Source: Candidatus Magasanikiibacteriota bacterium (GTDB lineage Bacteria > Patescibacteriota > Patescibacteriia > Magasanikbacterales > UBA922). From it: 54,475 bases of DNA. Shown here piece by piece: positions 4,020 through 25,700 of this stretch (within the stretch, counting starts at the first letter, position 1; every line of letters begins with the position of its first letter). The translations under genes and the position numbers were made by a program. Location: the NCBI GenBank assembly GCA_018650645.1, contig JABIFP010000023.1, positions 1 through 54,475 of the forward strand, written 5' to 3'. Below the pieces are notes generated by a model. It was not told the DNA's origin, made no database searches, and saw only the letters and a program-made list of their open reading frames with translations.

Positions 4020-5417
4020 ATGTCAGAAATTAGTAAATCGATTCAAAACCTTTGTGACATGAAGGGCCTTGATTATGAGATTGTCATTGAAGCTGTGGAA
4101 TCTGCACTTGGAGCAGCCTACCGCAAGGATTTTGGACACAAACAAATGAATATCAAAACAAAATTTGATACAGAAACAGGAGACATGCAAATGTGGGATG
4201 TAAAAGAAGTAGTTGAAGATATTGCAGAAGAAGAGCTTGAAACTGCGCAAGAAGAACTCGCTACTCGAAGAGAAAAAGCATTAGAAGAGGAGCGTGAACT
4301 TACTGATGAAGAAATTGAAGACTTGCCAAAATATAATCCAAAAACAGAAATCATGTTTGCTGCAGCAAAAGAAGTGAAAAAGGATGCAGCAATTGGTGAT
4401 GTACTAGAAATTGAATTAGATATTCCAGGAGATTTTGGACGAATGGCAGCACAAACTGCAAAGCAAGTGATTATCCAAAAAGTACGAGAAGCAGAACGCA
4501 ACAATGTGTTTGAAGATTTTCAAGGACAGGAAGGATCTGTTATTCAAGCAGTCGTGCACAGACGCGACAAATCTGGAAAGGTGCTTGTAGATCTTGGAAA
4601 AATTACGGGTGTATTGCATACTGATCAGCAAAGTCCAAGAGATCGTTACCGCCCGGGAACACGCATGCGTTTTTACATCATGAGTGTAGAAATGACGCAG
4701 CGCGGACCAGATATTATTCTTTCAAGAACACACACAGACATGGTGCGTTCAGTATTTGAACAAGAAATTCCAGAAATTGCGAGTGGAGAAGTAGAGATTA
4801 AGGGAATTGCTCGCGACGCGGGTGCACGAAGCAAAGTTGCTGTATTTACAGATGATGAATCGATTGATCCAATTGGAAGTTGTATTGGACAACGCGGAAG
4901 CAGAATCACGACTATTATTGATGAACTCGATGGAGAAAAAGTTGATATCATTCAATACTCTGATGATGCACAAGCATATATTAAAGAAGCACTTTCACCA
5001 GCCAAGGTTGATAAGGTAGAGCTTGAAGAAGAAACTAAAACTGCAAATGTTCATGTTGTTGAAGATCAGTTCTCTTTGGCAATTGGACGAGGAGGTCAAA
5101 ATGTTCGTCTTGCTGCACAGCTTACTGGTTGGGAAATCAATGTGTTACAACTTGATGATCCAGATAAAGTTGTCAGTTCAGAAGATGGGGAAGAAGCGGT
5201 AGAAGAAGTTTTGACAGAAACAGATTCAGCAGAGGAAGCTACTACTGACGTTCCTGCGGAAGAAGTTGAAGCAACAGAGGAAACTGTTACTGAAGCTCCG
5301 GTAGAAGTTGCGGAAGAACCCCCAGCTGAAGAAACTCCAGTAGAGGAGTCAGCTGAAACACCAGAAGAAGAACCTGCAGAAGATAAAGAAGAAAAAAAAG
5401 AAGAAGCTGCTGAGTAA
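4020..5417 (+). CDS. nusA: transcription termination/antitermination factor NusA with E/P/A/T-rich acidic C-terminal tail
   Basis: NusA N-domain, S1 and KH regions (GRGGQNVRLAAQLTGWEI). The last ~90 aa are low-complexity acidic. Confidence 0.93.
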   Translation: MSEISKSIQNLCDMKGLDYEIVIEAVESALGAAYRKDFGHKQMNIKTKFDTETGDMQMWDVKEVVEDIAEEELETAQEELATRREKALEEERELTDEEIEDLPKYNPKTEIMFAAAKEVKKDAAIGDVLEIELDIPGDFGRMAAQTAKQVIIQKVREAERNNVFEDFQGQEGSVIQAVVHRRDKSGKVLVDLGKITGVLHTDQQSPRDRYRPGTRMRFYIMSVEMTQRGPDIILSRTHTDMVRSVFEQEIPEIASGEVEIKGIARDAGARSKVAVFTDDESIDPIGSCIGQRGSRITTIIDELDGEKVDIIQYSDDAQAYIKEALSPAKVDKVELEEETKTANVHVVEDQFSLAIGRGGQNVRLAAQLTGWEINVLQLDDPDKVVSSEDGEEAVEEVLTETDSAEEATTDVPAEEVEATEETVTEAPVEVAEEPPAEETPVEESAETPEEEPAEDKEEKKEEAAE

Positions 5418-5426
5418 TATCAGTAA

Positions 5427-5462
5427 TAAAAAAGACATCGCATGTGCGATGTCTTTTTTTTG
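5427..5462. terminator. bidirectional intrinsic terminator between nusA and the convergent minus-strand gene
   Basis: A-run, GACATCGCA/TGCGATGTC stem, T-run. Confidence 0.8.
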
Positions 5463-5840
5463 TTACCGAGCTTGTTGGTCAGCTATTCGTTTTTGAAATT
5501 TTTTCACATCGTGTAATCCCCAGAGGTAGAGGAGGAATAGAATTGGAGCCTTTCCTCCGGCTAGTACCCCAAGTGCCACGTAAGCAATAGTCACATACCA
5601 TGCATATTGTGCAGTCTGATTGCTGGTAGCAGGATTTCGACGGATAGAAATGGCTAGATAAAGGAACACGAGACTAAAAATGATGAGGATAATACCAATA
5701 AGAGGCATCATGGAAGTGATAGAAATTGACATGATCAGCATCAGTATTCCTAAGAAGATGCCCATACTTCCAACAGTTTTAATTTGTTTTTTCATTTTTT
5801 CAGGATCAGTTATGATCCCAGGTTTAGGCTGCTCTTCCAT
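5463..5840 (-). CDS. integral membrane protein, unknown function
   Basis: 125-aa ORF with several hydrophobic helices. Confidence 0.6.
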   Translation of the reverse strand: MEEQPKPGIITDPEKMKKQIKTVGSMGIFLGILMLIMSISITSMMPLIGIILIIFSLVFLYLAISIRRNPATSNQTAQYAWYVTIAYVALGVLAGGKAPILFLLYLWGLHDVKKFQKRIADQQAR

Positions 5841-5845
5841 ATAAA

Positions 5846-6235
5846 CTAAATGTCAGTAAATAATTCATGAATATTTCCATCGGGGTCAGCAAAAAAAGCT
5901 GCTCGCTGTCCCCATGGCATATCTGCTGGGGGAGTAATTGGCGTTGCTCCTTTTTCTACAATTTCTGCATACGTAGTATCTACTGCCGCGGCTGTATCTT
6001 CTTTAAACGCGAGTTCAAGTCGCTGCCCAGTTGCTGGTTTTGTATATGATTTGTGCGAAGTGACTTCATGCATGACCGCATTTGTGCTAATGGCAAAGCG
6101 TACACCGGTTTGTTCAAATTCCACGTAATTTGGCATTTCAAGTTTAACCTGAAAGCCAAGAACGTCTGTGTAAAATGTTTTCATCGTTTCGAATTGATCG
6201 GTAATAATACCAATCATATTGATTTGGGCTTGCAT
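5846..6235 (-). CDS. VOC/glyoxalase-family protein
   Basis: 129 aa. FYTDVLGF...E...PWGQRAAFFADPDGNIHEL is typical of the glyoxalase/bleomycin-resistance fold. Confidence 0.8.
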   Translation of the reverse strand: MQAQINMIGIITDQFETMKTFYTDVLGFQVKLEMPNYVEFEQTGVRFAISTNAVMHEVTSHKSYTKPATGQRLELAFKEDTAAAVDTTYAEIVEKGATPITPPADMPWGQRAAFFADPDGNIHELFTDI

Positions 6236-6236
6236 A

Positions 6237-6800
6237 TTAATCGAGTGTTAAAATAGCTTCCTCAAATACATAAATAATATTTGTGTCTAAATATGTTTTA
6301 ACCAGTGTATCTGCTGTAGGGTAGGTGTGTCCGTGCAAAAAGTACTTTGGTGATTTGTATTCAATATATTCTCTGAGGCCGAGTAGTCCTTTATGAGAAG
6401 AACTATCTGGTTCGTCATTAATATCTTGTGGCGGGGAATGTGCCAGCATAATATCTACATGCGGAAAGTCTTTTAGCATTTCTCTTGCTTCTTCTTGCGT
6501 ATACATTATTGCATACTTGGATTCTTTGTAGCGGAGAGATCCTTCAAACCCACCAAATGTCATGCCTTTGTATTCAAACGTGTTGAGGTGCATGTTGGTA
6601 ATCCCAAGCTGATCAAAATAATTACCAGAACAGTGATTTCCATACACGCCAAGTTTTGGAATGTCAGTGATTTGCTGTAACTCTTGCAATGCAAAAAAAT
6701 CTAAGTCGCCAAGTGTGCAAATAATATCGATTGGCTGCGTCCGTACAATTTCTAAAATAGATTGTTTTGGTGCTCTGTCTGCAATTGCAAGTATATTCAT
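6237..6800 (-). CDS. metallophosphoesterase (calcineurin-like)
   Basis: GDLD, GNHC and HGHTY motifs. The ATG at 6800 is preferred over the GTG at 6815 because it avoids overlap with the upstream gene. Confidence 0.75.
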   Translation of the reverse strand: MNILAIADRAPKQSILEIVRTQPIDIICTLGDLDFFALQELQQITDIPKLGVYGNHCSGNYFDQLGITNMHLNTFEYKGMTFGGFEGSLRYKESKYAIMYTQEEAREMLKDFPHVDIMLAHSPPQDINDEPDSSSHKGLLGLREYIEYKSPKYFLHGHTYPTADTLVKTYLDTNIIYVFEEAILTLD

Positions 6801-6801
6801 A

Positions 6802-7176
6802 TTACACCCAACCACGTTCTTTATATAACGCGTATCCTTTTTTTAATGCATGCGCGATTTGTTTTTCTAGTGTTGCATCGAGTTTTTTGATATGAAAACA
6901 AGATTTGCCTTTAAGAAGGGCAAGAAGTTCTTTCCCAAATACATCTTTCAGTGAGGTGTCTGCATATATGGGCATAAAGTAAAAGCCCACATAGCTGCTC
7001 TGAATGATCAGACCCGCAAAATAGACTTCTTTGCGTTTACGGCCATCTATTTCAATATCTTTCACTGACCACAAATCATATTTGCTATCTAAGTCAAACT
7101 TGGGCGTAAGACCCCCCTCATACGCCTTCAGAAGCGTTTTAACGCGTTTATAGATTGGTACTAATGTATCTTGCAT
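6802..7176 (-). CDS. small DUF1801-like protein (tentative)
   Basis: 124-aa ORF, tightly coupled to the downstream gene. Family assignment is by eye only. Confidence 0.55.
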   Translation of the reverse strand: MQDTLVPIYKRVKTLLKAYEGGLTPKFDLDSKYDLWSVKDIEIDGRKRKEVYFAGLIIQSSYVGFYFMPIYADTSLKDVFGKELLALLKGKSCFHIKKLDATLEKQIAHALKKGYALYKERGWV

Positions 7177-7214
7177 ATGCTCTCATCATATCGCATAGCG
7201 CGGGGGAGTGCAAT

Positions 7215-7241
7215 CAAAAAATCGCCTGCTGGCGATTTTTT
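7215..7241. terminator. bidirectional intrinsic terminator
   Basis: AAAAAATCGCC-TGCT-GGCGATTTTTT, overlapping the stop codon of 7240..8382. Confidence 0.75.
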
Positions 7242-8382
7242 ACTCTACTGGGTTTTTGATGGCATCGACTATCCGTTCTCTGGCTTGTTCTAGCGAAACG
7301 CCTTTAAGCGTTACGGATGCTTGCTGCGAATTTCCATATCCACCGAGTGGCGACAGAATCTCTTTTGCATTGAACATTTTTTCTACATGCAAAATGGCGT
7401 GTACTTGGTTATGTTCTGGCGTAACATGTTCATGTAGGAGTAGGGTAAGCTGCGCTTCCGGAGAATTGGCAATAAGTTCTTCAATAATATCGTAGAGTTG
7501 CTGCTCATCTGCACCAGATGTGGCAAAATCTTTTTGCGTAATGGCAGTGCTGACTAATCCAATCGATTCGTCAAAGCTTAAGTGTGCAAGTGCTTGGCCC
7601 CAAAGTCGCAATGTAGAAAGTGATTTTGTTTGATAGAGTTGTTTGATAATAAAATCTCTATCTGCTCCCATGCTTACCAATTTACTTGCAAGCGCGAGTG
7701 AATGTGGTTTAATGTGTTCTTTTTTGAAACTATTTGTTGCCGCAATCATTCCGGTAAGGAGTGCTGTCGCAATTTTTTTATTCATGGTACGCGCAGAAGT
7801 GTTGATCATCATGTTGGTAACAACTTCAGCGGTAGAACTGGCTGTAAGGTCAACAAGGTTTACTGTTCCGTAGTGATCGTTTTTAATATCCTGATCAATA
7901 TTAATGACCGGCACATCAAAAAAGAGATTTGCATTTTGTTCATACAGTGGCCCGAGTTCTTCCAAATCGTGTGCACCAAGTGTTACCACCAAATCGTATC
8001 TAAAATCAGATTGAGATGTTGCCACATGTTGGCGGGTCAAGAATCCACTTTCAGGTGTCACATAAATTTGCAGCTTCTGATCCTTTACATCATAGCTGAG
8101 TTCTTGCAGTCCGGCATCTTTCACATCGATAGAAATAAGGAGCTGCTGCAAATGCGGTACTTTTGGAGTAACGTGCTCCGCTCCATCAAGAAAGGCAAAT
8201 TTTTGTGGCACCACAAAATCATGCGATGCAATATCGATTTGCTTTCCTTGTTGTTCAAGCCATTCTTTTAATGCCAGTGCACTTCCAAGAGCATCGCCCT
8301 TATCATTTTTGGCAAACGCAATAAGCACGTGTTTAGACGAATCAAAAAGATGCTTGAGCTGTTGTTTCTCTGTTCTTGCCAT
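7240..8382 (-). CDS. DHH-family phosphoesterase (NrnA-like)
   Basis: NDKGDALGS motif I and DHHA1-like C-terminus. The position where I expect the DHH triad reads IDQDIKNDHYG (by eye; needs an alignment). Confidence 0.75.
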   Translation of the reverse strand: MARTEKQQLKHLFDSSKHVLIAFAKNDKGDALGSALALKEWLEQQGKQIDIASHDFVVPQKFAFLDGAEHVTPKVPHLQQLLISIDVKDAGLQELSYDVKDQKLQIYVTPESGFLTRQHVATSQSDFRYDLVVTLGAHDLEELGPLYEQNANLFFDVPVINIDQDIKNDHYGTVNLVDLTASSTAEVVTNMMINTSARTMNKKIATALLTGMIAATNSFKKEHIKPHSLALASKLVSMGADRDFIIKQLYQTKSLSTLRLWGQALAHLSFDESIGLVSTAITQKDFATSGADEQQLYDIIEELIANSPEAQLTLLLHEHVTPEHNQVHAILHVEKMFNAKEILSPLGGYGNSQQASVTLKGVSLEQARERIVDAIKNPVE

Positions 8383-8434
8383 AGCTTTTCATTGGACATT
8401 ACTCGTCTCTGTGCTATCAGTAATGTAGCATAGA

Positions 8435-8463
8435 ATAATAGCAGAAATCGATTTTGTTGTCAA
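8435..8463 (-). promoter_or_regulatory. sigma70-like promoter TTGACA-17-TATTAT for the DHH gene
   Basis: Reverse complement of 8435-8463. Confidence 0.5.
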
Positions 8464-8546
8464 CCTAGCGAAAAAAATGGGTTTTGTGGATATTCTTAGA
8501 TATATGAAAAAAGGGCTTATTTTAGCGAAATAGGTGGTGTAGTGGG

Positions 8547-8575
8547 TTGACAAAAGAGGTTTTTTGTGGTATAGT
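8547..8575 (+). promoter_or_regulatory. strong sigma70-like promoter TTGACA-17-TATAGT with TGn extension, pointing into high-GC cassette 1
   Basis: -35 at 8547-8552, TG at 8567-8568, -10 at 8570-8575. The sequence is AT-rich and host-like. Confidence 0.6.
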
Positions 8576-8663
8576 GTGGCGTTATGTTTTGCGATGTATG
8601 ATTCGTTTAGCGAGTTATACACTGCAACGCATACCTTGGAATATGTCCTTGGTGTGAATAGCA

Positions 8664-9270
8664 ACGGGCTGTGGGGCCCTGAATAAATCTAAATCCCACT
8701 GAGAGGCCTAACCATGGCCACCGTTAACCCCGTTCAGGCCGCCTTTGCGCTGGATCTCTGGTTCTGGGGGGAGGACTTCGTTTCGATCCCCAAGGGCGTG
8801 ACCTTCGATATGGTCGTGATGGGGAAGGCTCATCTTCCGGGCAACTGGGAGAGGGGTGATGACGAGGTCCTCGGAGAGACCTTCCGGATCGAGCTCGAGG
8901 GTGGGCTGCACCTCTGCGTGTCGGAGGGGCAGTTCTGGCTCGGCCTGAGCCACCCCGAGGTCAACGAGGGGAAGCCCTTTTTCTCCTGGCGCTACAGGCC
9001 GGGGATGCAGACCGAGCACTCCGTTGAGGTGTTGGGGCAACAGGGATCGACTCGGGAGCAGAAGGTGCGTGCTCGAGCCCAGCGCCATGCGCGGCTCATC
9101 AACGCGCTCATGCAGCTTACCGAGGCTTCTCTGCGCCTCAGCTCCTTTTTCTAGCCGCGCGCAACGCGCGGAAGTCGTCCAGCTCACCCGAGCCGGGCGC
9201 CTGCAGAAGTTCCAACTCTGTAGACCTGCGAGCGACTAGAGTACCACTCGGTATTCGTCGCTCGCACATT
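8664..9270 (+). other. high-GC cassette 1 (approximate bounds)
   Basis: Abrupt composition step. Hand counts give 57% and 63% GC on lines 8761 and 8821, versus 35% on line 4021. Confidence 0.7.
8714..9154 (+). CDS. hypothetical Trp-rich protein (146 aa) encoded in high-GC cassette 1
   Basis: About 85% G/C at third codon positions by hand tally, versus about 65% for the antisense ORF. GAGAGG lies 7 nt upstream of the ATG. No family recognised. Confidence 0.75.
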   Translation: MATVNPVQAAFALDLWFWGEDFVSIPKGVTFDMVVMGKAHLPGNWERGDDEVLGETFRIELEGGLHLCVSEGQFWLGLSHPEVNEGKPFFSWRYRPGMQTEHSVEVLGQQGSTREQKVRARAQRHARLINALMQLTEASLRLSSFF

Positions 9271-16522: not shown

Positions 16523-16559
16523 AAGGACGCGTTAATTTGGACGCGTCCTTTTCTTTTCT
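16523..16559 (+). terminator. intrinsic terminator of argS
   Basis: AAGGACGCG...CGCGTCCTT stem followed by TTCTTTTCT. Confidence 0.7.
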
Positions 16560-16584
16560 CAAACTTTGGCTCACGGAGGTGACC

Positions 16585-17727
16585 GTGCTAGTTGCGAATA
16601 GCGGTGTAAACCGCAACGAAGAAGCTGTCGCCCCCGAGGCGTCAGATGAGTTTCAAGAGGTTGCCCTGACGCGTGACGTCGGTGCCAACACGCTCGCGTA
16701 TGAGCACTCGATTTGTTTGCACCCCGAGCTGTGGAGTGAGCTGACCGCGATCGAACTCCACAAGTGGTTCAGCCCACGTAGCTGGCGCTACTGGGCGCTG
16801 ATGTTGCCGAGCTTCCTGCTGTTCCTGCTGAACGGTTGGTGGCGAGTGGCTGCGGCCTGGATCATCCAGACGCTGGGAGGTCGAGGCCTGTCAGTCCTCG
16901 TTGGGTCTGGCGTCAACAGGTGCTTTACCGTTGTCAGTAAGTTCGCCTACGAACTGCGCGAACTGGTGACTTCGAGTGGATCGCTTGCGATCGTTTACAA
17001 TTACGTCGTCTGGTCGCACATGGAAGGACTGCATCGGCAGCTGACGTGGGGTGAGCGCTACATGCGCTTCCACATGATGCAGCCGGATGCTGTCGCCGTA
17101 CGGCTTCGGGCCATCAAGACGTTTGAACAGGCGCTCAAGCGGCTGGAGAACCTTCTCACAGATCCTGAGCTCGGTCCGACGTTTACGGTCGAGTCGCCGC
17201 TGATATTCCCGGTCCTCGCTTGTGGTAACGCGCAAGCGGAGATCGACGCTGTCTACAGGCTGTACCAGGTCTTCCCTGAGTTCCGCGGACGGGTGAAGCT
17301 CCATCTTGTGGATGCCACTATGGCGCCACTGAGGGCAGCCGCGGATTACGCGGAAAATCGGGGCCTCGAGGGAAACTTTGAGATCTTCTGCATGAAGCTG
17401 CGGCCATACCTGCGCATGGTCAAGGAGCAGGGTTGGAAGATCTACATCCTCGACATCGTCGGGTTTCTCGACTATTACTCGGGGATCAAGATCGCGAGCC
17501 TTCTCGCTTTCATCAAGGATGTGGTGCAGAAAGGCGCCATGATCATCACCGCGCTCATCAGCAAGAGCAAGTTGGCCTTCTCAGTTCGCTGGTCGACCAA
17601 CTGGCCGCTCCTTCGCAGGTACACGAGGGAGCAGTTCACCTCGTTCTTGCTCAAGGCAGGTTTCGAGGGGAACATCACGATCATCTCCTGCATTGATGTC
17701 CACTTCGTGGCCGTCATCACCGTCTAG
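16585..17727 (+). CDS. membrane-anchored class I methyltransferase-like protein (380 aa) in high-GC cassette 2
   Basis: GTG start 5 nt after GGAGG (16575-16579); the ORF is open from 16537. TM-like segment YWALMLPSFLLFLLNGWW. C-terminal Rossmann-like strand pattern: VLACGNAQ, LHLVDAT, IYILDIVGFLDY, GAMIITAL. Confidence 0.7.
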   Translation: MLVANSGVNRNEEAVAPEASDEFQEVALTRDVGANTLAYEHSICLHPELWSELTAIELHKWFSPRSWRYWALMLPSFLLFLLNGWWRVAAAWIIQTLGGRGLSVLVGSGVNRCFTVVSKFAYELRELVTSSGSLAIVYNYVVWSHMEGLHRQLTWGERYMRFHMMQPDAVAVRLRAIKTFEQALKRLENLLTDPELGPTFTVESPLIFPVLACGNAQAEIDAVYRLYQVFPEFRGRVKLHLVDATMAPLRAAADYAENRGLEGNFEIFCMKLRPYLRMVKEQGWKIYILDIVGFLDYYSGIKIASLLAFIKDVVQKGAMIITALISKSKLAFSVRWSTNWPLLRRYTREQFTSFLLKAGFEGNITIISCIDVHFVAVITV

Positions 17728-20216: not shown

Positions 20217-20984
20217 ATGTACGTGTATCTTTACGACGAACTTGTAAAACACAAGAGGTACAAACAAGAAATGAGATCAATCGAGAACCGATTGACAGAT
20301 TTTGGTATTGCTGGTAGGATAGTGCGGCTTCAGCAGTTTACGAACTCCGAGGCTGTCATTTCTGAAGAGATGAAACGCGGCGCAGAAGTTGCGGTTATCG
20401 TTGGAGATGATAAAACATTTGGACGAGTTCTTTCTAGAAGCGCATCGCTTGGAGTGGTGTTTGGCTTCATTCCAATTGGGTCAGAAAAAGACAATACCAT
20501 TGCAAACGTACTTGGTATTCCTATTGGTGAAGAAGCATGTGAAGTACTGGCAAGAAGAAGAAAAGTTGGGCTTGATGTTGGTTGGGTAAATAACAGATAC
20601 TTTATTTCTCAATTACATATCAAACCACACCCAATTCGTGTACAGTACGATGAACAGTTTGCGGTAAGCGCGCGTAATGGAAAAATGGAACTCGTGGTAT
20701 GTAACTTGCAGCCGTTTGTGTGGAATGATACATCAAAACGGCAGTATGTTGTACATCCGCAAGACGGAAAGCTAGAAGCTTTTTTGCGACCAATGAAAAA
20801 GAAGACGTTGTTTAAAGAGGTGTATGAAGAACCAAGTGTGTTTCCATTTGAAGAAATGGTTATCCAATCGGATAAGCCGTTTGTGATGGAAGCTGATGGA
20901 AAAAAAAGTAAAGAAACAAAGGTGACGATTCGACTTGCTCGCAATCGTATCCACATGATTGTTGGAAAACACAGAAAATTTTGA
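20217..20984 (+). CDS. diacylglycerol/lipid kinase-like protein (degenerate)
   Basis: ATG at 20217 (MYVYLYDE...). VIVGDDKTFGRVL resembles the DAGK catalytic-domain GGDGT region. Assignment is tentative. Confidence 0.6.
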   Translation: MYVYLYDELVKHKRYKQEMRSIENRLTDFGIAGRIVRLQQFTNSEAVISEEMKRGAEVAVIVGDDKTFGRVLSRSASLGVVFGFIPIGSEKDNTIANVLGIPIGEEACEVLARRRKVGLDVGWVNNRYFISQLHIKPHPIRVQYDEQFAVSARNGKMELVVCNLQPFVWNDTSKRQYVVHPQDGKLEAFLRPMKKKTLFKEVYEEPSVFPFEEMVIQSDKPFVMEADGKKSKETKVTIRLARNRIHMIVGKHRKF

Positions 20985-21063
20985 TAGAATCATGAGCACG
21001 TGGTTCGGGAAGAGTAGATAGCTGTCTATTTTTCCCGCATCGCGGCAAACCACGCTCAGGTGG

Positions 21064-21089
21064 TCCGCCTTCGCTAAAGCTATGGCGGA
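21064..21089 (-). repeat. dispersed palindromic repeat (TCCGCC-TTCGCTAAAGCTAT-GGCGGA)
   Basis: Same family as 24031-24056 (inside rnpB), 33471-33498 and 17869-17906. Enclosed by a 12-bp inverted repeat (21025-21036 / 21102-21113). Confidence 0.6.
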
Positions 21090-21120
21090 TGAACTCTGTG
21101 TGGGAAAAATAGAACAATAC

Positions 21121-21206
21121 GCTCAGGTGGCGGAATTGGTAGACGCGCTGGCTTGAGGGGCCAGTGACTCGCAAGGGTCGTGGAGGTTCAAGTCCTCTTC
21201 TGAGCA
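21121..21206 (+). tRNA. tRNA-Leu (anticodon GAG), long variable arm, no encoded CCA
   Basis: GCTCAGG acceptor, GGCGGAATTGGTAGACGCG D-arm typical of tRNA-Leu, anticodon arm CTGGC-TTGAGGG-GCCAG, variable arm GACTC-GCAA-GGGTC, T-arm GGAGG-TTCAAGT-CCTCT. Confidence 0.9.
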
Positions 21207-21361
21207 CAAATATAAGACAGCCGATAAGGCTGTCTTATATTTGTGCGAAAAGAGAGAGGGTTTGAACCGGGGGTGGTAGGGGGCAGAGCCCCCTACATGC
21301 TGCGGAAAAGCTGGAAAAACCTGAAGGTTTTTACAAGAGGACACGAAGTGCCGAGTGAAAG

Positions 21362-21380
21362 GTCCTCTTCTGAGCACAAA
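21362..21380 (+). repeat. 19-bp perfect duplicate of the tRNA-Leu 3' end plus 4 nt of flank (GTCCTCTTCTGAGCACAAA)
   Basis: Identical to 21192-21210. Each copy is followed by its own hairpin (21204-21246; 21383-21406). Confidence 0.85.
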
Positions 21381-21628
21381 CGAAGACACTCGAAAGAGTG
21401 TCTTTTGTGTTGACAAAAACAAAAAAAACGTGTAATAAAGAAGCAGGCCCCCCAATTTTGGGGAGGAAGGACAACAATAAGGTGCATACAAAAGCTATAC
21501 CTCCGGATGAACTCCGGGGAGAGAGCGCAGTCTCTTGTCGCAGGGAAGGTGCGACAAGGCGGATTGTGCCGACGGACGCTGAAGGAAGGCCCACGCGTGT
21601 TCACACGCAGGCCCCTTTCGCGGGACGT

Positions 21629-22273
21629 ATGGTGCGTCACGGCAACTGGCAGGTTGAGGTCTTTTGGACTGAATCCTGCGCCGTGGTGGCCATGGGTGAG
21701 TACCACGTCGGGTTTCCTCGCGGAGACTGGGAGTGGTACTTTGGCGCGGTAGTGGATGATGTGTTCACGCCGCATGAGGTGATCGGGCGAGCGCGCTTCG
21801 ATCGAGGTGGGCTCAACATGAGCGCCCGCCTCTTCCATCGGAGCGTGGAGGTGGTCCCTGGCGAGTACTGGAACACCCATCGAGAAGATGCGCGGGTGTG
21901 GCGGGACTTTCTCGCCTTGACCCCGGATTGGGAGTCGCAGGCTTACGTCAACGCGCACAAGTACGCGTGCAGCCGCTCACCGAATCGGGAGATCGCTAAG
22001 GGCACAGCGCTCTACGCGGACTTCAAGTATGGCGAGCGTGCGTCGACGTGGGAAGGTTTCGACGTGCACGGCAAGTGCGTGTGGACGGGAGACTTCCAGG
22101 AGGATGCGTCGGTTCACACGCGAGTTGGGCCAGGACTGAGCTCGGAAGCGTCCGCCGGCAAGCTCGGCTGGGTGCGGATGCTCGGGATGACCCTGCCTTC
22201 GCATGGTGCGTACCAGTTGCTCCTAGAGCACTTCGTCGCCCCCATTGTGCCGATCTACAGCGCCGAGGTCTAG
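21629..22273 (+). CDS. hypothetical Trp-rich protein (214 aa from ATG 21629) in high-GC cassette 3
   Basis: Strong G/C third-position bias. The frame is open from 21398, so the start is uncertain (in-frame GTG at 21482 is also possible). No family recognised. Confidence 0.65.
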   Translation: MVRHGNWQVEVFWTESCAVVAMGEYHVGFPRGDWEWYFGAVVDDVFTPHEVIGRARFDRGGLNMSARLFHRSVEVVPGEYWNTHREDARVWRDFLALTPDWESQAYVNAHKYACSRSPNREIAKGTALYADFKYGERASTWEGFDVHGKCVWTGDFQEDASVHTRVGPGLSSEASAGKLGWVRMLGMTLPSHGAYQLLLEHFVAPIVPIYSAEV

Positions 22274-22314
22274 ACCTCCTCCTGCTTGTGCAAGCAGGGA
22301 ACAACTGATGATTC

Positions 22315-22348
22315 GCTCGACCGTCGCACTGGTCGGGCTCTTTTTTTT
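22315..22348 (+). terminator. GC-rich intrinsic terminator ending cassette 3
   Basis: GCTCGACC...GGTCGGGC stem followed by TCTTTTTTTT. Confidence 0.75.
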
Positions 22349-22356
22349 ACAAACAA

Positions 22357-22380
22357 AAACACACCCTATTGGGTGTGTTT
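22357..22380 (-). terminator. terminator hairpin for 22391..23707 (copy 1 of a duplicated hairpin)
   Basis: AAACACACCC-TATT-GGGTGTGTTT. On the minus strand it is followed by T-rich sequence. Confidence 0.65.
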
Positions 22381-22390
22381 TATATTTTAG

Positions 22391-23707
22391 TTATTTTTCT
22401 AGCGTAATGTCATTTTCAGAAAGCCGTACAGTGTATTTGGTAGGGCTAATGGGTGTGCTCTTATCTTTCATATGCTCTGGAATGCTTGCACATTTGTCTA
22501 CACCATCTCCAATAGCACAAAGCGGTTCACTATGAGATTCACCATTGGCAAACAGTTGATTATCACGTTTTTCTAGTTGGATGAGTGTCCTTCTAAAACC
22601 CTCACTAACCGGACTAGAGACAATCACATCGGTTTCATCTGTAAATGAAGCGACAAAGAAATAGCTCCCCATCCCATCAAATGCCGTAATAAGGGAATAA
22701 TATCGGTTAGCATCTCTGCAGACTGCTACAAATGACAAATTGTATACCGTTGGTTCTATCTGAAGCCATGGATACGCTAGTGGTTCGCGTTCATAAAATT
22801 CTTCAGCGCGAATTTGACTATCTATCATTTCCATTGCTCGTTCAAATGTATCATTTGAAATCATGTCATCTTTACTGACCAAGTCTAGACCTAAACATGC
22901 CTCAGCTGTCCAGGTGATATCACCGCTCGCTGAAAGTTCAGCTTCAATTTCAAATCGATATTCATTTTTTTCAATAGAAATTGGTTTTTGGAGTGATTCT
23001 GGAAGCAATGAACACGGTACAGTCATTTCATATCCAGGACATACAGGCGTTGATGGTGGTTCGCTAATTGCATAAATAGCATCATCCCGCTTTTCTAGAA
23101 TAGAGAATTGGTCAAGATACGAAGTGGCAGTTTTTTCGGAAACATGCAGACTACCAACTTTTTCTTCGACTGGGAATATTCCTTCTCGAGTATGATAGCT
23201 ATAGCCTAACGTAAAAGAGGCAATCCAATTATCGGCGCCGCGGGAATCTGGATCTGAAATATGGAGATATCTAAGATCCCCATCCTGACAGGCGGTAATA
23301 ATATGTAGGTTATTGGAATATTGCCCTATATTCCAAGGAGCATCAAGCTTTTCGGCGTATATTTTTTCAGCAGATTGTTCTCTGATTTTTTGATCAATTT
23401 GGGTGAGTGCATCTTGCGTTCTTTTTTCATTATACATTTCTTGTAGTGTCCACGCCTTCATGCCTCTGCAGTGTTCATCTGTCCATACTCTTGGTGGGTT
23501 TAATCCGTACTGATTTTCCTTTATCGTTTTTTTCGTAGACTCCAAATTTTTTTCCAGCGTCTCTATCTTTTCATGAAGTGGTTGTAGATCGGCAGTTTCC
23601 GCTTGGGGCACAGTAGCTGTTTCATCACCCTGTGAAAACACATACACAGATAAGCCTGTAGAGAGTATCGCTAAGGTAATTGCAATATATGCGAGGAGTG
23701 ATTTCAT
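22391..23707 (-). CDS. secreted hypothetical protein (438 aa)
   Basis: Signal-peptide-like N-terminus MKSLLAYIAITLAILSTGLSVYVFSQG. No family recognised. Confidence 0.8.
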   Translation of the reverse strand: MKSLLAYIAITLAILSTGLSVYVFSQGDETATVPQAETADLQPLHEKIETLEKNLESTKKTIKENQYGLNPPRVWTDEHCRGMKAWTLQEMYNEKRTQDALTQIDQKIREQSAEKIYAEKLDAPWNIGQYSNNLHIITACQDGDLRYLHISDPDSRGADNWIASFTLGYSYHTREGIFPVEEKVGSLHVSEKTATSYLDQFSILEKRDDAIYAISEPPSTPVCPGYEMTVPCSLLPESLQKPISIEKNEYRFEIEAELSASGDITWTAEACLGLDLVSKDDMISNDTFERAMEMIDSQIRAEEFYEREPLAYPWLQIEPTVYNLSFVAVCRDANRYYSLITAFDGMGSYFFVASFTDETDVIVSSPVSEGFRRTLIQLEKRDNQLFANGESHSEPLCAIGDGVDKCASIPEHMKDKSTPISPTKYTVRLSENDITLEK

Positions 23708-23744
23708 AAAGTAGTATTAAAATACAGTGTAAGTATACCACAAA

Positions 23745-23774
23745 CAAAAACACACCCAATCGGGTGTGTTTTTG
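23745..23774 (-). terminator. terminator hairpin downstream of rnpB (copy 2 of the duplicated hairpin)
   Basis: CAAAAACACACCC-AATC-GGGTGTGTTTTTG. Confidence 0.65.
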
Positions 23775-23776
23775 TT

Positions 23777-24208
23777 GCCTTATCGATCCGTATAAGCCGA
23801 ATTCTGTTCATCGCCAAAGCGATGGATGATCATTTATCTAGGGACGCTGTTGCCAGCGAACTCATGCGAGCTAACTTTTCGAAGCCTTGCGGCAACGCTG
23901 CTCTTGCTCCAGGTAGGGTTTACCACCGCTGCATGTCACCATGCAGGGAGTACAGTCGCTTTTGTCTATAGAACAAAAACATCCGTACACTTTTCACCTT
24001 TCCTCCTCTTCAACGAATTGAAGTATGTTGCCCTCCTTCGCTAAAGCTACGGCGGGCGGAGTAGTATTGTCTCTGTGGCACTGTCCCTCACGGCTTGTTG
24101 CCAAGACGCGGGTGGGCGTTACCCACTACCTTTTTTTTAGAACGAGTCTAAGGAGTTCGGACTTTCCTCTTACGCAAAGCGCAAGCGATCATCACTGGTC
24201 AATAAGGC
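23777..24208 (-). ncRNA. rnpB: RNase P RNA, bacterial type A
   Basis: The minus strand reads GAGGAAAGUCCGAACUCC (P4 5' strand), GGUAACGCC, ACAGUGCCACAGAGA, GGUAAACCCUACCUGGAGCAAG, CUAGAUAAAUGAUCAUCC and ACAGAAUUCGGCUUAU. P1 pairs GCCUUAUUGACC with GGAUCGAUAAGGC. Confidence 0.92.
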
Positions 24209-24214
24209 CCAGCA

Positions 24215-24243
24215 AGAGTACCATAAAAAACTGCGTTTGTCAA
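24215..24243 (-). promoter_or_regulatory. rnpB promoter TTGACA-17-TACTCT (minus strand)
   Basis: The -10 ends 6 nt before the predicted rnpB 5' end. Confidence 0.55.
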
Positions 24244-24246
24244 TGA

Positions 24247-24275
24247 TTGACCCGCCTGGCCGTGGAGGGTACAAT
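24247..24275 (+). promoter_or_regulatory. promoter TTGACC-17-TACAAT ending 6 nt before the sugar transferase ATG (leaderless mRNA predicted)
   Basis: The -35 box lies back-to-back with the rnpB -35 (TGTCAAtgaTTGACC). Confidence 0.5.
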
Positions 24276-24281
24276 ACCCCT

Positions 24282-25700
24282 ATGAAACGACTAGAACTCA
24301 TCTTAATGCTTTTGCAGGTCCCTGTGGATTTGCTCATGCTCCTTATTGCTGCGGGAAGTGCATACTTGCTGCGTTTTTCTGATTGGGCAGTTGGAATGAA
24401 AGCTGTGCAATTCGATTTATCTTTGACGGAATTTCTTTCAACGGCGTTTCCAATCTTTCTGGTTTGGCTCGTTATTTTTGCCTTTACTGGTTTGTATAAC
24501 GCACGCGGATCAAAGCGATTTGCTCAAGATGTATTACAAATAATTTTGGCTTGTTCTACAGGACTCGCATTTGTTGCGCTCTACATGCTCTTTTTCCAGC
24601 AACAATTCGACTCTCGTTTTTTGCTTGCTGCCACATGGGTAGGGTCACTTGTTTATGTAACAGCTGGGCGACTTATTATGCGCGGGGTTAAAGGATTGTT
24701 TTATAGAAGTGGAAGAGGGCTGAAGCGAGTAGCAATTATTGGGTCAGATTCTGTATCGATTGCGCTTAAGGACGTGTTATCAAATCGACCAGAACTTGGT
24801 TATAGCGTTGCTGCAAGTTATGCATCATTCTCAGATAATGCAATTCGACATATTCGAGCGGCGCATGTCGATGAACTTATTTTGACAAACCCCCGAAGTA
24901 ATGAAAAAGATACGGTAAAAGCGTATGAGTTTGCAAAGCTCAATCACATTGGATTTAAGTATAGTGCAGACATGTTTGCAACGCTAAGCGCGAACATGAG
25001 TGTACATCCTCTTGGAGGAATCCCTATGGTAGAAATGAACCCAACCAGACTGCAAGGATGGGGACGTATTTTAAAACGACTCTTTGATATTATTACCAGT
25101 CTGACATTACTTATTATTCTTTCTCCAATTTATCTGATTACAGCACTCGTAATAAAAAGTGAAACAGGAACCCCAATTATTTATAAAAACGAGCGCGTGG
25201 GAGTCCGCGGAAGAACATTTTTTACACTCAAATTCCGTAGCATGTTCCAAAAAGATTCCACTGGTGCACAGTTTGGAAAAAGCGGAAAGCATGCAGAAGA
25301 TGCGGAAGCAAAACTCATCAAAAAACAAAACAGCAAGCACGGACCAATTTATAAAATCAAAAATGATCCGCGGGTTACACCTTTTGGCAGATTTATTCGC
25401 AAATGGAGCATTGATGAATTGCCACAATTTGTGAACGTATTAAAAGGAGAAATGAGCATTGTTGGGCCGCGGCCGCATCAGCCAAGAGAAGTTGAAAAGT
25501 ATGATAAAGAACATTCAGTGGTATTTGCAATTAAGCCGGGAGTAACTGGTTTGGCGCAAATTTCTGGAAGAAGCGACTTGACCTTTGAAGAGGAAATGCG
25601 GTTAGATACACTATATGTAGAGCGTTGGAGTTTATGGCTTGACATTATCATCTTTATAAAAACACCTTTTATCTTGTTTAAGAAACGATCTGTTGAGTAA
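24282..25700 (+). CDS. polyprenyl-phosphate sugar phosphotransferase (WbaP-like, bacterial sugar transferase family)
   Basis: N-terminal TM helices and C-terminal KFRSM...DELPQ...GPRP catalytic-domain motifs. ATG at 24282 is preferred over the TTG at 24237, which overlaps the rnpB promoter. Confidence 0.88.

Follow-up and report, generated by a model that had tools for sequence, protein, structure and literature searches.

Nested insertion footprints and a small folded element between the tRNA-Leu(GAG) and rnpB genes in Magasanikbacteria

The stretch of DNA analyzed here (the window, 54 kb of contig JABIFP010000023.1 from a Candidatus Magasanikiibacteriota bacterium) contains a single tRNA gene, tRNA-Leu(GAG), which was located by ARAGORN at 21121-21207 and matched by the Rfam tRNA family RF00005 with 50.6 bits at 21121-21206. 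The gene follows that of a DAGK-like protein, and this order is kept in 17 of the 18 relative lineages in which it could be checked, the exception being L030, where an ABC-type gene resides between the two. In the closer lineages, rnpB, encoding the class A RNase P RNA, is next on the opposite strand. In Magasanikbacteria, the interval bounded by the tRNA gene and rnpB represents a hot spot of recombination; the window carries nested insertion footprints within it, which are the subject of the present study. Relatives are given as numbered lineages (L001-L048), and strain variants were taken from Logan contigs of marine metagenome runs. The features around the tRNA gene are:

21052-21063, plus strand: upstream copy of the tRNA 5' end (ACGCTCAGGTGG), an exact repeat; the tRNA of L027 begins exactly at the corresponding point
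21064-21118, plus strand: 55 nucleotides (nt) of inserted DNA, consisting of a 30-nt palindromic repeat (21064-21093) and 25 nt with the right arm of an inverted repeat; absent from L027
21121-21207, plus strand: intact tRNA-Leu(GAG), CCA not encoded
21192-21210, plus strand: copy 1 of a 19-mer, comprising the last two T-loop nucleotides, the 3' strands of T-stem and acceptor, the discriminator and CAAA
21204-21246, plus strand: hairpin 1, a perfect 19-bp stem (21204-21222 / 21228-21246) overlapping the tRNA 3' end
21247-21361, plus strand: body of a conserved structured element of ~115 nt, with the anti-T segment, a multi-stem domain including the hairpin 21276-21296, the hairpin 21314-21333 and the 5' arm of the hairpin 21335-21369; homologous to L019:273-384
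21247-21272, plus strand: anti-T segment, which repeats the tRNA T-arm and 3' strand in inverted orientation with tolerance of wobble pairs, as judged by duplex energy
21362-21380, plus strand: copy 2 of the 19-mer, an exact repeat and attachment-site (att)-like junction; variant D of the strain variants is identical up to 21365 (GTCC)
21383-21412, plus strand: hairpin 2 with a U-tract, an intrinsic terminator and diverged counterpart of hairpin 1

An earlier reading of the sequence (the original prediction) had described this locus as a tRNA flanked by partial copies of itself, resembling scars of att sites without an integrase. All repeats and hairpins listed there are present and exact, and ARAGORN returned one intact tRNA-Leu(GAG). 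At the 3' side, the 19-mer GTCCTCTTCTGAGCACAAA occurs exactly at 21192-21210 and 21362-21380 and is made up of tRNA positions 59-73 and a 4-nt trailer. Both copies are followed by a hairpin. Hairpin 1 is terminator-like, with an A-tract, a GC core and a U-rich tract, and has an ortholog in L027; hairpin 2 has the stem AAGACACTC-GAAA-GAGTGTCTT at 21383-21404, followed by TTTGTGTT. The two resemble diverged copies of each other (AAGACA..TGTCTT..TTTGTG, ~60% identity), and the original duplication in the window was therefore probably ~50 nt long, as it is in L019, with only the 19 tRNA-derived nucleotides remaining identical today. In L022, the native junction of tRNA and trailer agrees with 21362-21389 of the window in 26 of 28 positions. 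No coding capacity is present in the 151 nt that separate the 19-mers. A degenerate second tRNA was considered and rejected; the tRNA model and the element model R1 see the shared 3' end only.

That these repeats are chance matches or assembly artifacts is hardly credible. In shuffled sequences, no matches to the 19-mer are expected, even if three mismatches are allowed. The 12-mer at the 5' side, taken alone and across the whole window, is near chance (at least two matches in 2 of 100 shuffles; blastn E 2.5); however, its duplication is validated by L027 and L039 (see below). Ten contigs from independent samples and assemblers encode an identical DAGK protein and are 100% identical to the window wherever they cover 20925-22434, five of them spanning this region completely, and the arrangement is thus fixed in this marine population and not an assembly artifact. 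In addition, L019 repeats the same architecture, and this explanation is refuted.

A metagenome scan with the T-arm and acceptor sequence of the tRNA returned three relatives of the locus, L017, L019 and L022, while a protein-based metagenome scan gave no matches and look-ups of the GTG-start DAGK ORF and of the ORF of a nearby cassette (cassette 3, see below) were equally empty. L017 and L022 are empty sites, in which the tRNA, its terminator hairpin, the rnpB terminator and rnpB directly follow one another. In an alignment of L019 with its sibling L017, the flanks are 94% identical and interrupted by a single 160-nt indel, which consists of a 112-nt body and a perfect 48-nt duplication, GTCCTCTTCTGAGCACTAAAAAACTCCCGAATGGGAGTTTTGTGTGTT, that starts with G59 in the T-loop and stops where the U-tract of the terminator ends. 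The body in L019 is homologous to window positions 21247-21361 (nhmmer E about 1e-29) and has near-identical blocks in common with it, namely GGGYTTGAAC, GGRAAAACCYGAAGGTTTTYACRAGAGGA and CGAGTGAAAKGTCCTCTTCTGAGCAC. Between the window and the L017/L019 lineage, the DAGK-like protein shows only 65% identity, and the lineages between them (L031, L034, L036 and L022) are without the element, which is also absent from L017, L039 and L001-L006. L027 has a truncated version, in which the hairpin 1 ortholog is retained together with ~25 nt from the start of the element before unrelated cargo begins. Searches of the window and the loci with nhmmer and a covariance model found no element copies beyond the window, the contigs of its own population and L019. 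Thus, the empty sites that were to be looked for in relatives do exist, including a filled and empty sibling pair, and the tRNA fragments are genuine insertion-associated duplications which leave the tRNA intact.

The element has a conserved fold. Region 21000-21420 folds with z = -11 relative to shuffled sequences, and the proposed hairpin GTAGGGGGC-AGA-GCCCCCTAC at 21276-21296 is present, as are the pairings AAAAACC/GGTTTTT and GAGGAC...GTCCTC. For the two full members, those of the window and L019, RNAalifold yielded three domains with 33 pairs, of which six are changed on both sides in a compensatory manner, eight on one side with all of them wobble-compatible, and none is broken; sliding the 3' partners by one to three columns as a control lowered the pairing to 37-64%. 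Being derived from the same two full sequences on which it is judged, this modeled fold is suggestive but not proof. The consensus energy is -31.1 kcal/mol on the plus strand vs. -19.5 kcal/mol on the minus strand, and this far higher stability suggests a single-stranded, tRNA-sense form. In the hairpin that closes the body, the 3' arm is provided by the beginning of copy 2. At the other end of the body, the anti-T segment is predicted to form a duplex with the tRNA T-arm, with -28.9 kcal/mol in the window (p about 0.002 vs. shuffles) and -28.6 kcal/mol in L019 (p at most 0.002 for the two lineages), and this segment varies together with the associated 3' end in the read-derived variants B, C and E.

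Based on these results, the original prediction of serial integration and deletion events at this tRNA needs to be amended. Insertion footprints at a site of mobile DNA are indeed present; however, the ~115 bp between the 19-mers are not the leftover of such events but a conserved element, since they are shared with a distant lineage and show six compensatory changes without a broken pair. A conserved structured element in relatives had been named as the observation that would speak against variable scars, and the body in L019 is in part such an element.

Given its fold, the element might be a functional structured RNA within the 3' trailer of the pre-tRNA-Leu, either a tRNA-linked non-coding RNA or a cis-regulatory module, a possibility that we rather doubt. 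The anti-T segment and the mimic of T-stem and acceptor in copy 2 would then be parts of the RNA, selection would keep the 19-mer identical, and the presence or absence among lineages would reflect loss by recombination between the repeats, a view not fully exclusive of mobility. The consensus pairs with their controls, the strand difference and the predicted T-arm duplex of about -29 kcal/mol in both lineages are all in line with such an RNA. The same is true for copy 2, which is identical to the tRNA at 19 of 19 positions while the adjoining hairpin has diverged to ~60%, for the body in L019, which is invariant among strain variants in four runs, and for strain variant A with a compensatory change in the hairpin 21276-21296. 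A precedent is also known from E. coli, namely the glyW-cysT-leuZ transcript, whose 3' external transcribed spacer functions as a small RNA sponge. On the other hand, apart from the small number of sequences behind the fold, a terminator-like hairpin, which is a canonical terminator in L019, is located between tRNA and element, so that read-through would be needed. Rfam 15 has no match to the element, with only the tRNA and RNase P passing, and an Rfam E-value scan of 20500-24500 gave spurious miRNA-type matches on hairpin 1 only. Furthermore, the distribution is patchy, with the truncation in L027, and three metatranscriptomes of a related study, in which this organism does not occur, contain only tRNAs of other organisms at this locus.

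Strain variants of the locus point to copy 2 as a site of exchange. The variants A to E are leads rather than resolved loci, as their flanks are known from 30-nt loose ends alone. Besides its compensatory change, variant A differs from the window in the 3' part. For variant B, the identity is 87% over 97 nt; the right flank of this variant, GAGTCCCACCAGCAGGGCAAAAC, looks like another tRNA-like 3' end, and its left flank includes the complementary CAGCTGGTG. In variant C, the anti-T segment GAATCGAAC fits a different T-loop, and variant E is 95% identical, with the 3' part of the tRNA repeated almost perfectly and in inverted orientation in its left flank. Variant D, found in runs X12 and X16, has two differences from the window over 21125-21365, and directly after GTCC of copy 2 (21365) it continues with CTCCCGCGGCACAAAAAAAAACGAGC (cited also as CTCCCGCGGCAC...). 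This right flank is the 3' end of a tRNA-Leu whose acceptor is of the GC-rich type found in other lineages (L004, L031). Copy 2 thus behaves as a recombination junction between near-identical strains, with the break on the boundary between T-loop and T-stem, and an att junction would have this appearance. Run X16 has no contigs over 21386-22196, which is most of a GC-rich cassette located to the right of the repeats (cassette 3, see below). Reads of this run also include the tRNA-Leu(GAG) of a related population, in which the variable arm shows a three-pair compensatory swap at 21168-21177 (CTC..GGG to GGG..CCC).

The fragment at the 5' side of the tRNA has a different origin. The 12-mer ACGCTCAGGTGG occurs exactly at 21052-21063 and 21119-21130. 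In L027, a sister species with 92% amino acid (aa) identity in the DAGK-like protein, the alignment with the window extends to GCTCAGGTGG, from where the tRNA of L027 simply goes on, and the window has 67 extra bases made up of 55 nt of new DNA and the second copy of the 12-mer. As L027 is without these 67 bases, the upstream 12-mer marks the ancestral start of the tRNA, which identifies the fragment as a genuine duplication. The inserted sequence opens with the 30-nt palindromic repeat TCCGCCTTCGCTAAAGCTATGGCGGATGAA and includes the right arm of an inverted repeat (21025-21039 / 21099-21113; 15 nt, 93% complementary), between whose arms the upstream fragment and the palindromic repeat are located. 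The core of the palindromic repeat, CCTTCGCTAAAGCTATGGCGG, has three copies in the window (21068, 24035 and 33473 minus strand) where none is expected; of the two further copies, one is located downstream of a HAD-hydrolase gene and the other inside rnpB. We propose that, in an event separate from that at the 3' side, this dispersed repeat would have been inserted, accompanied by the duplication of 12 nt from the 5' end of the tRNA. The L027 comparison therefore sets the 5' fragment apart from the att-like system of the 3' end, to which the original prediction had assigned it. L039, with a DAGK-like protein 65% identical, has a homologous arrangement upstream of its tRNA. The pseudo-fragment there, GTTCAGGTAG, agrees with the tRNA of L039 itself, GTTCAGGTGG, at the position in which the latter differs from the tRNA of the window. 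Judging from the sequences, the 5' event would either recur or have its copies homogenized, and recombination between the repeats could instead have removed the insert from L027.

The copy of the palindromic repeat within rnpB resides in a ~45-nt expansion of one helix (24005-24060) that is missing in L027, and it appears that a mobile hairpin of small size has entered this ribozyme gene and has been tolerated there. Compared to L027, rnpB of the window has a second insertion of 14 nt at about 24135-24150. A promoter-like site further upstream, which overlaps the stop codon of the DAGK-like gene and is conserved in L027, would provide the pre-tRNA with a structured leader of ~120 nt that contains the 5' pseudo-fragment. 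This site and the features to the right of the element are:

20962-20990, plus strand: promoter-like site TTGGAA-17-TG-TAGAAT with an extended -10 from a consensus scan, likely the pre-tRNA-Leu promoter
21410-22348, plus strand: GC-rich cassette 3, outside the repeats, with a promoter (TTGACA..TAATAA), a leader of ~190 nt, an ORFan open reading frame (ORF) at 21629-22273 and a terminator at 22315-22348
22349-23772, minus strand: 438-aa secreted-type gene (22391-23707) between 33-nt direct repeats of the rnpB terminator
23775-24206, minus strand: class A RNase P RNA (Rfam 169.6 bits), the right-hand anchor of the variable interval and common to L001, L017, L019, L022 and L027

Between these anchors, the content of the interval differs from lineage to lineage:

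L017 and L022: nothing
L019: the element only
Window: the element, the ORFan GC-rich cassette 3, and the 438-aa gene within the 33-nt repeats of the rnpB terminator
L027: a stub of the element, a 199-aa gene and a GC-rich stretch
L001: an ORF with 60% GC and a consensus promoter

The ORF of cassette 3 matched only itself among 5.8 billion proteins, and the cassette has no similarity to the cargo of L001, L027, L034 or L039. The original prediction had connected this cassette to the repeats, for which we find nothing beyond its apparent absence from the run with variant D. The 60% GC ORF of L001 (L001:7205-8230, in a genome with 30% GC) combines a perfect TTGACA-17-TATAAT promoter with a terminator of its own and is unrelated to cassette 3. 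An additional GC-rich cassette of the window, cassette 2, encodes a protein (16537-17727) with an ortholog of 61% identity at the equivalent position of L027 (L027:1469-2554), while the neighboring DAGK-like proteins are 92% identical.

Larger islands at the same tRNA, for which a search in related genomes had been suggested, were found in L039-L048 and L034, both with genes for large serine recombinases. In L039-L048 the gene encodes 518-522 aa and abuts tRNA-Leu(GAG), and the island, which has 53-67% GC in a host of ~40% GC, also encodes a Replic_Relax protein. In L039 the island (4834-8762; also in L040-L048) directly follows the tRNA and includes several orphan genes, and the called ORF of the recombinase runs antisense across the tRNA. 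Islands of this type are a possible source type for the GC-rich orphan cassettes. In L034, a partial large serine recombinase gene, 33% identical to that of L039-L048, is located ~1 kb downstream of the tRNA. Partial copies of tRNA-Leu(GAG) with an intact tRNA alongside also occur in L034 (4819-4926, 23 nt exact) and in L002 (1394-1500, 24 nt exact), two distant genomes; both are broken at the same D-loop position (GGTA|KAC) by similar double hairpins of ~47 nt (CCGTG..CACGG CCRTG..CATGG).

Duplications flanking inserts are not confined to the tRNA. The 33-nt repeats of the rnpB terminator (22349-22381 and 23740-23772; 94% identity) have only two copies in the window, and L027 has a single terminator copy and lacks the 438-aa gene, such that here, too, an insert is accompanied by a duplicated terminator, as at the tRNA. 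It might therefore be speculated that a general, recombinase-independent duplicative insertion is at work, for which the tRNA would be one of many hairpin-rich targets; candidate mechanisms would be the repair of staggered breaks where terminator hairpins are extruded, Campbell-type homologous integration by which small circles with a copy of the target are taken up, or fold-back priming. We consider this unlikely. It would explain why duplications of variable length surround unrelated inserts, being 12 nt long at the 5' end of the tRNA, 19-48 nt at its 3' end and terminator, and 33 nt at the terminator of rnpB, and why the 23-nt duplication of L034 and the 24-nt partial tRNA copy of L002 lie beside double-hairpin inserts. 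Also in agreement, both 48-nt copies in L019 carry the terminator variants of their own lineage, and the anti-T segment, hairpin 1 and the tRNA 3' end together form one long imperfect palindrome, as would arise from fold-back synthesis. However, this mechanism leaves unexplained the recurrence of the ~115-nt body in a distant lineage and in several read variants, as well as the foreign-type tRNA 3' end directly after GTCC in variant D, and homologous recombination on 12-19 nt is inefficient.

The reading we prefer, with middling confidence, is that the 3' element is a miniature integrative element without a recombinase of its own, located at an att junction in the T-loop and mobilized in trans. 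According to this model, the crossover would occur at the boundary of T-loop and T-stem of the tRNA. The element would comprise a body of ~115 nt with an inverted copy of the tRNA T-arm at its start and a direct copy from T-loop to trailer at its end, and its insertion would have duplicated the sequence from the T-loop to the end of the terminator, by which an intact tRNA persists. The duplication would still be perfect over 48 nt in L019, while in the window 19 nt would have remained perfect, followed by the diverged hairpin. As the element encodes nothing, it would have to be moved in trans, similar to the logic for cis-mobilizable elements (CIMEs). The duplications, the empty and filled sites, the conservation of the element with its fold, the breakpoint in a strain and the islands with recombinases in relatives are seen in the sequences; we infer that the junctions were made by a site-specific recombinase, and any assignment to a particular one would likewise be inferred. 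Among the features by which a tRNA-borne island or att site is recognized, direct repeats of the tRNA end beside one intact tRNA are provided by the 19-mers, and an empty site that differs by the insert and one repeat copy by L017 in comparison to L019.

A number of observations weigh against this model. The original prediction that no integrase is present nearby proved correct: Pfam scans of the 38 ORFs of the window revealed no integrase, transposase or recombinase, and thus no such gene in or next to the element. The only recombinases found at the locus in relatives are of the serine type, which normally leaves no long direct repeats, and the island of L039 begins beyond the tRNA terminator and not in the T-loop. 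In L019 the duplication reaches 32 nt into the host-specific terminator with L019-specific variants in both copies, and target duplication or homologous recombination therefore fits as well as an att copy borne by the element; similarly, the 33-nt duplication at the rnpB terminator, which is not a tRNA, argues for a general duplication mechanism and not for one att-specific enzyme. For att arms that bind proteins, one would not expect a fold that is specific to the plus strand and contains G-U pairs. Viral contigs were without the 19-mer, a 21-mer and two conserved blocks of the element, and no skipping joints indicative of an excised, empty or circular form were found when 10 DNA runs were compared with the window or L019 as Logan contigs, which drop rare variants.

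The position of the repeats is, nevertheless, that of established integration systems. The identity block opens in the T-loop and passes the tRNA 3' end, which is the T-loop sublocation used by tRNA-targeting integrases, e.g. that of mycobacteriophage Ms6 at tRNA-Ala (PMC1762012). As in such islands and prophages of tyrosine integrases, a direct repeat from the T-loop through the tRNA 3' end restores an intact tRNA, relatives have empty sites, and the content distal to the repeat is variable. In contrast, the present element has no integrase within or near it, its insert is ~115 nt and starts with an inverted T-arm copy, and the duplication in L019 extends 32 nt past the tRNA into a terminator specific to the host. 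CIMEs are remnants flanked by att sites without recombination genes, which can form tandem arrays with ICEs (integrative conjugative elements) and IMEs (integrative mobilizable elements) by accretion (PMC5704250, PMC7563491). The 151 non-coding nt of the window likewise constitute DNA flanked by att-like sequences without recombination or transfer genes; they are in series with other cargo at one site, and a strain variant differs to the right of the internal att copy. Known CIMEs, however, have sizes on the kilobase scale and arose by decay from ICEs or IMEs that can be identified in Firmicutes, while the element described here is a conserved folded unit of ~115 nt across distant lineages with no known parent. 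In arrays of staphylococcal cassette chromosomes (SCC) and pseudo-SCC elements, large serine recombinases (CcrAB) act at the 3' end of rlmH. There, too, short direct repeats of a conserved gene 3' end bound serial cassettes, some without a recombinase, and large serine recombinase genes are found at the present locus in relatives as well; the target differs, being a tRNA with its terminator and not rlmH, and the island junction of L039 is beyond the terminator.

Miniature inverted-repeat transposable elements (MITEs) and repetitive extragenic palindromic (REP)-like elements are similarly small, non-coding and rich in hairpins, and the palindromic repeat of the 5' side is truly dispersed, with three copies in 54 kb including the one in rnpB. 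The 3' element differs from these, as it is single-copy in the window and, among the loci searched, otherwise found only in L019 and its own population, its duplications are 19-48 nt and not 2-10 nt long, and its 'terminal inverted repeats' are copies of the neighboring tRNA. An origin as a group II intron, an IS200/IS605-type element or an integron was rejected based on unfitting size, ends and motifs.

The arrangement of an inverted tRNA copy, a conserved core and a direct tRNA copy also allows for a strand-specific folded recombination module, which we regard as quite unlikely. In such a module, the closing stem would rebuild a duplex mimicking the T-arm and acceptor region of the tRNA gene, and an enzyme acting in trans would capture or exchange DNA without a recombinase, including the orphan GC-rich single-gene cassettes, beside tRNA genes; the family would have diversified onto different tRNA 3' ends, as the variants A to C suggest. 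A comparable case is the forked-hairpin attP of filamentous phages that use the host XerCD (integrative mobile elements exploiting Xer, IMEX; reviewed in PMC3089051). Like integron attC sites and IMEX attP, the element forms an imperfect, strand-specific hairpin according to the modeled fold, in which the anti-T segment and copy 2 would rebuild a target-like duplex, and its recombinase is not encoded within it in a cassette-like setting. In contrast to attC, the R'' RYYYAAC / R' GTTRRRY motifs are not matched by GTTCAAG / CTTGAAC, and the window is without IntI and a dif-like site. By analogy to these systems, a single-stranded intermediate might be envisaged, purely by inference.

The genomes of bacteria of the candidate phyla radiation (CPR; Patescibacteria) are tiny, and little is understood about the ways in which these bacteria acquire genes. 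The present locus offers a natural series at one tRNA, from the empty site to the mini-element only, the mini-element with orphan cassettes and the recombinase-bearing GC-rich island, together with an att-like junction that is still exchanging DNA between near-identical strains. If the folded 115-nt element is a cis-acting handle for exchange, it would represent a new and very small kind of integrative module and offer a route to the orphan GC-rich genes scattered in these genomes. If it is instead an RNA linked to the tRNA, it would belong to an undescribed RNA family which mimics and pairs with its neighboring tRNA.

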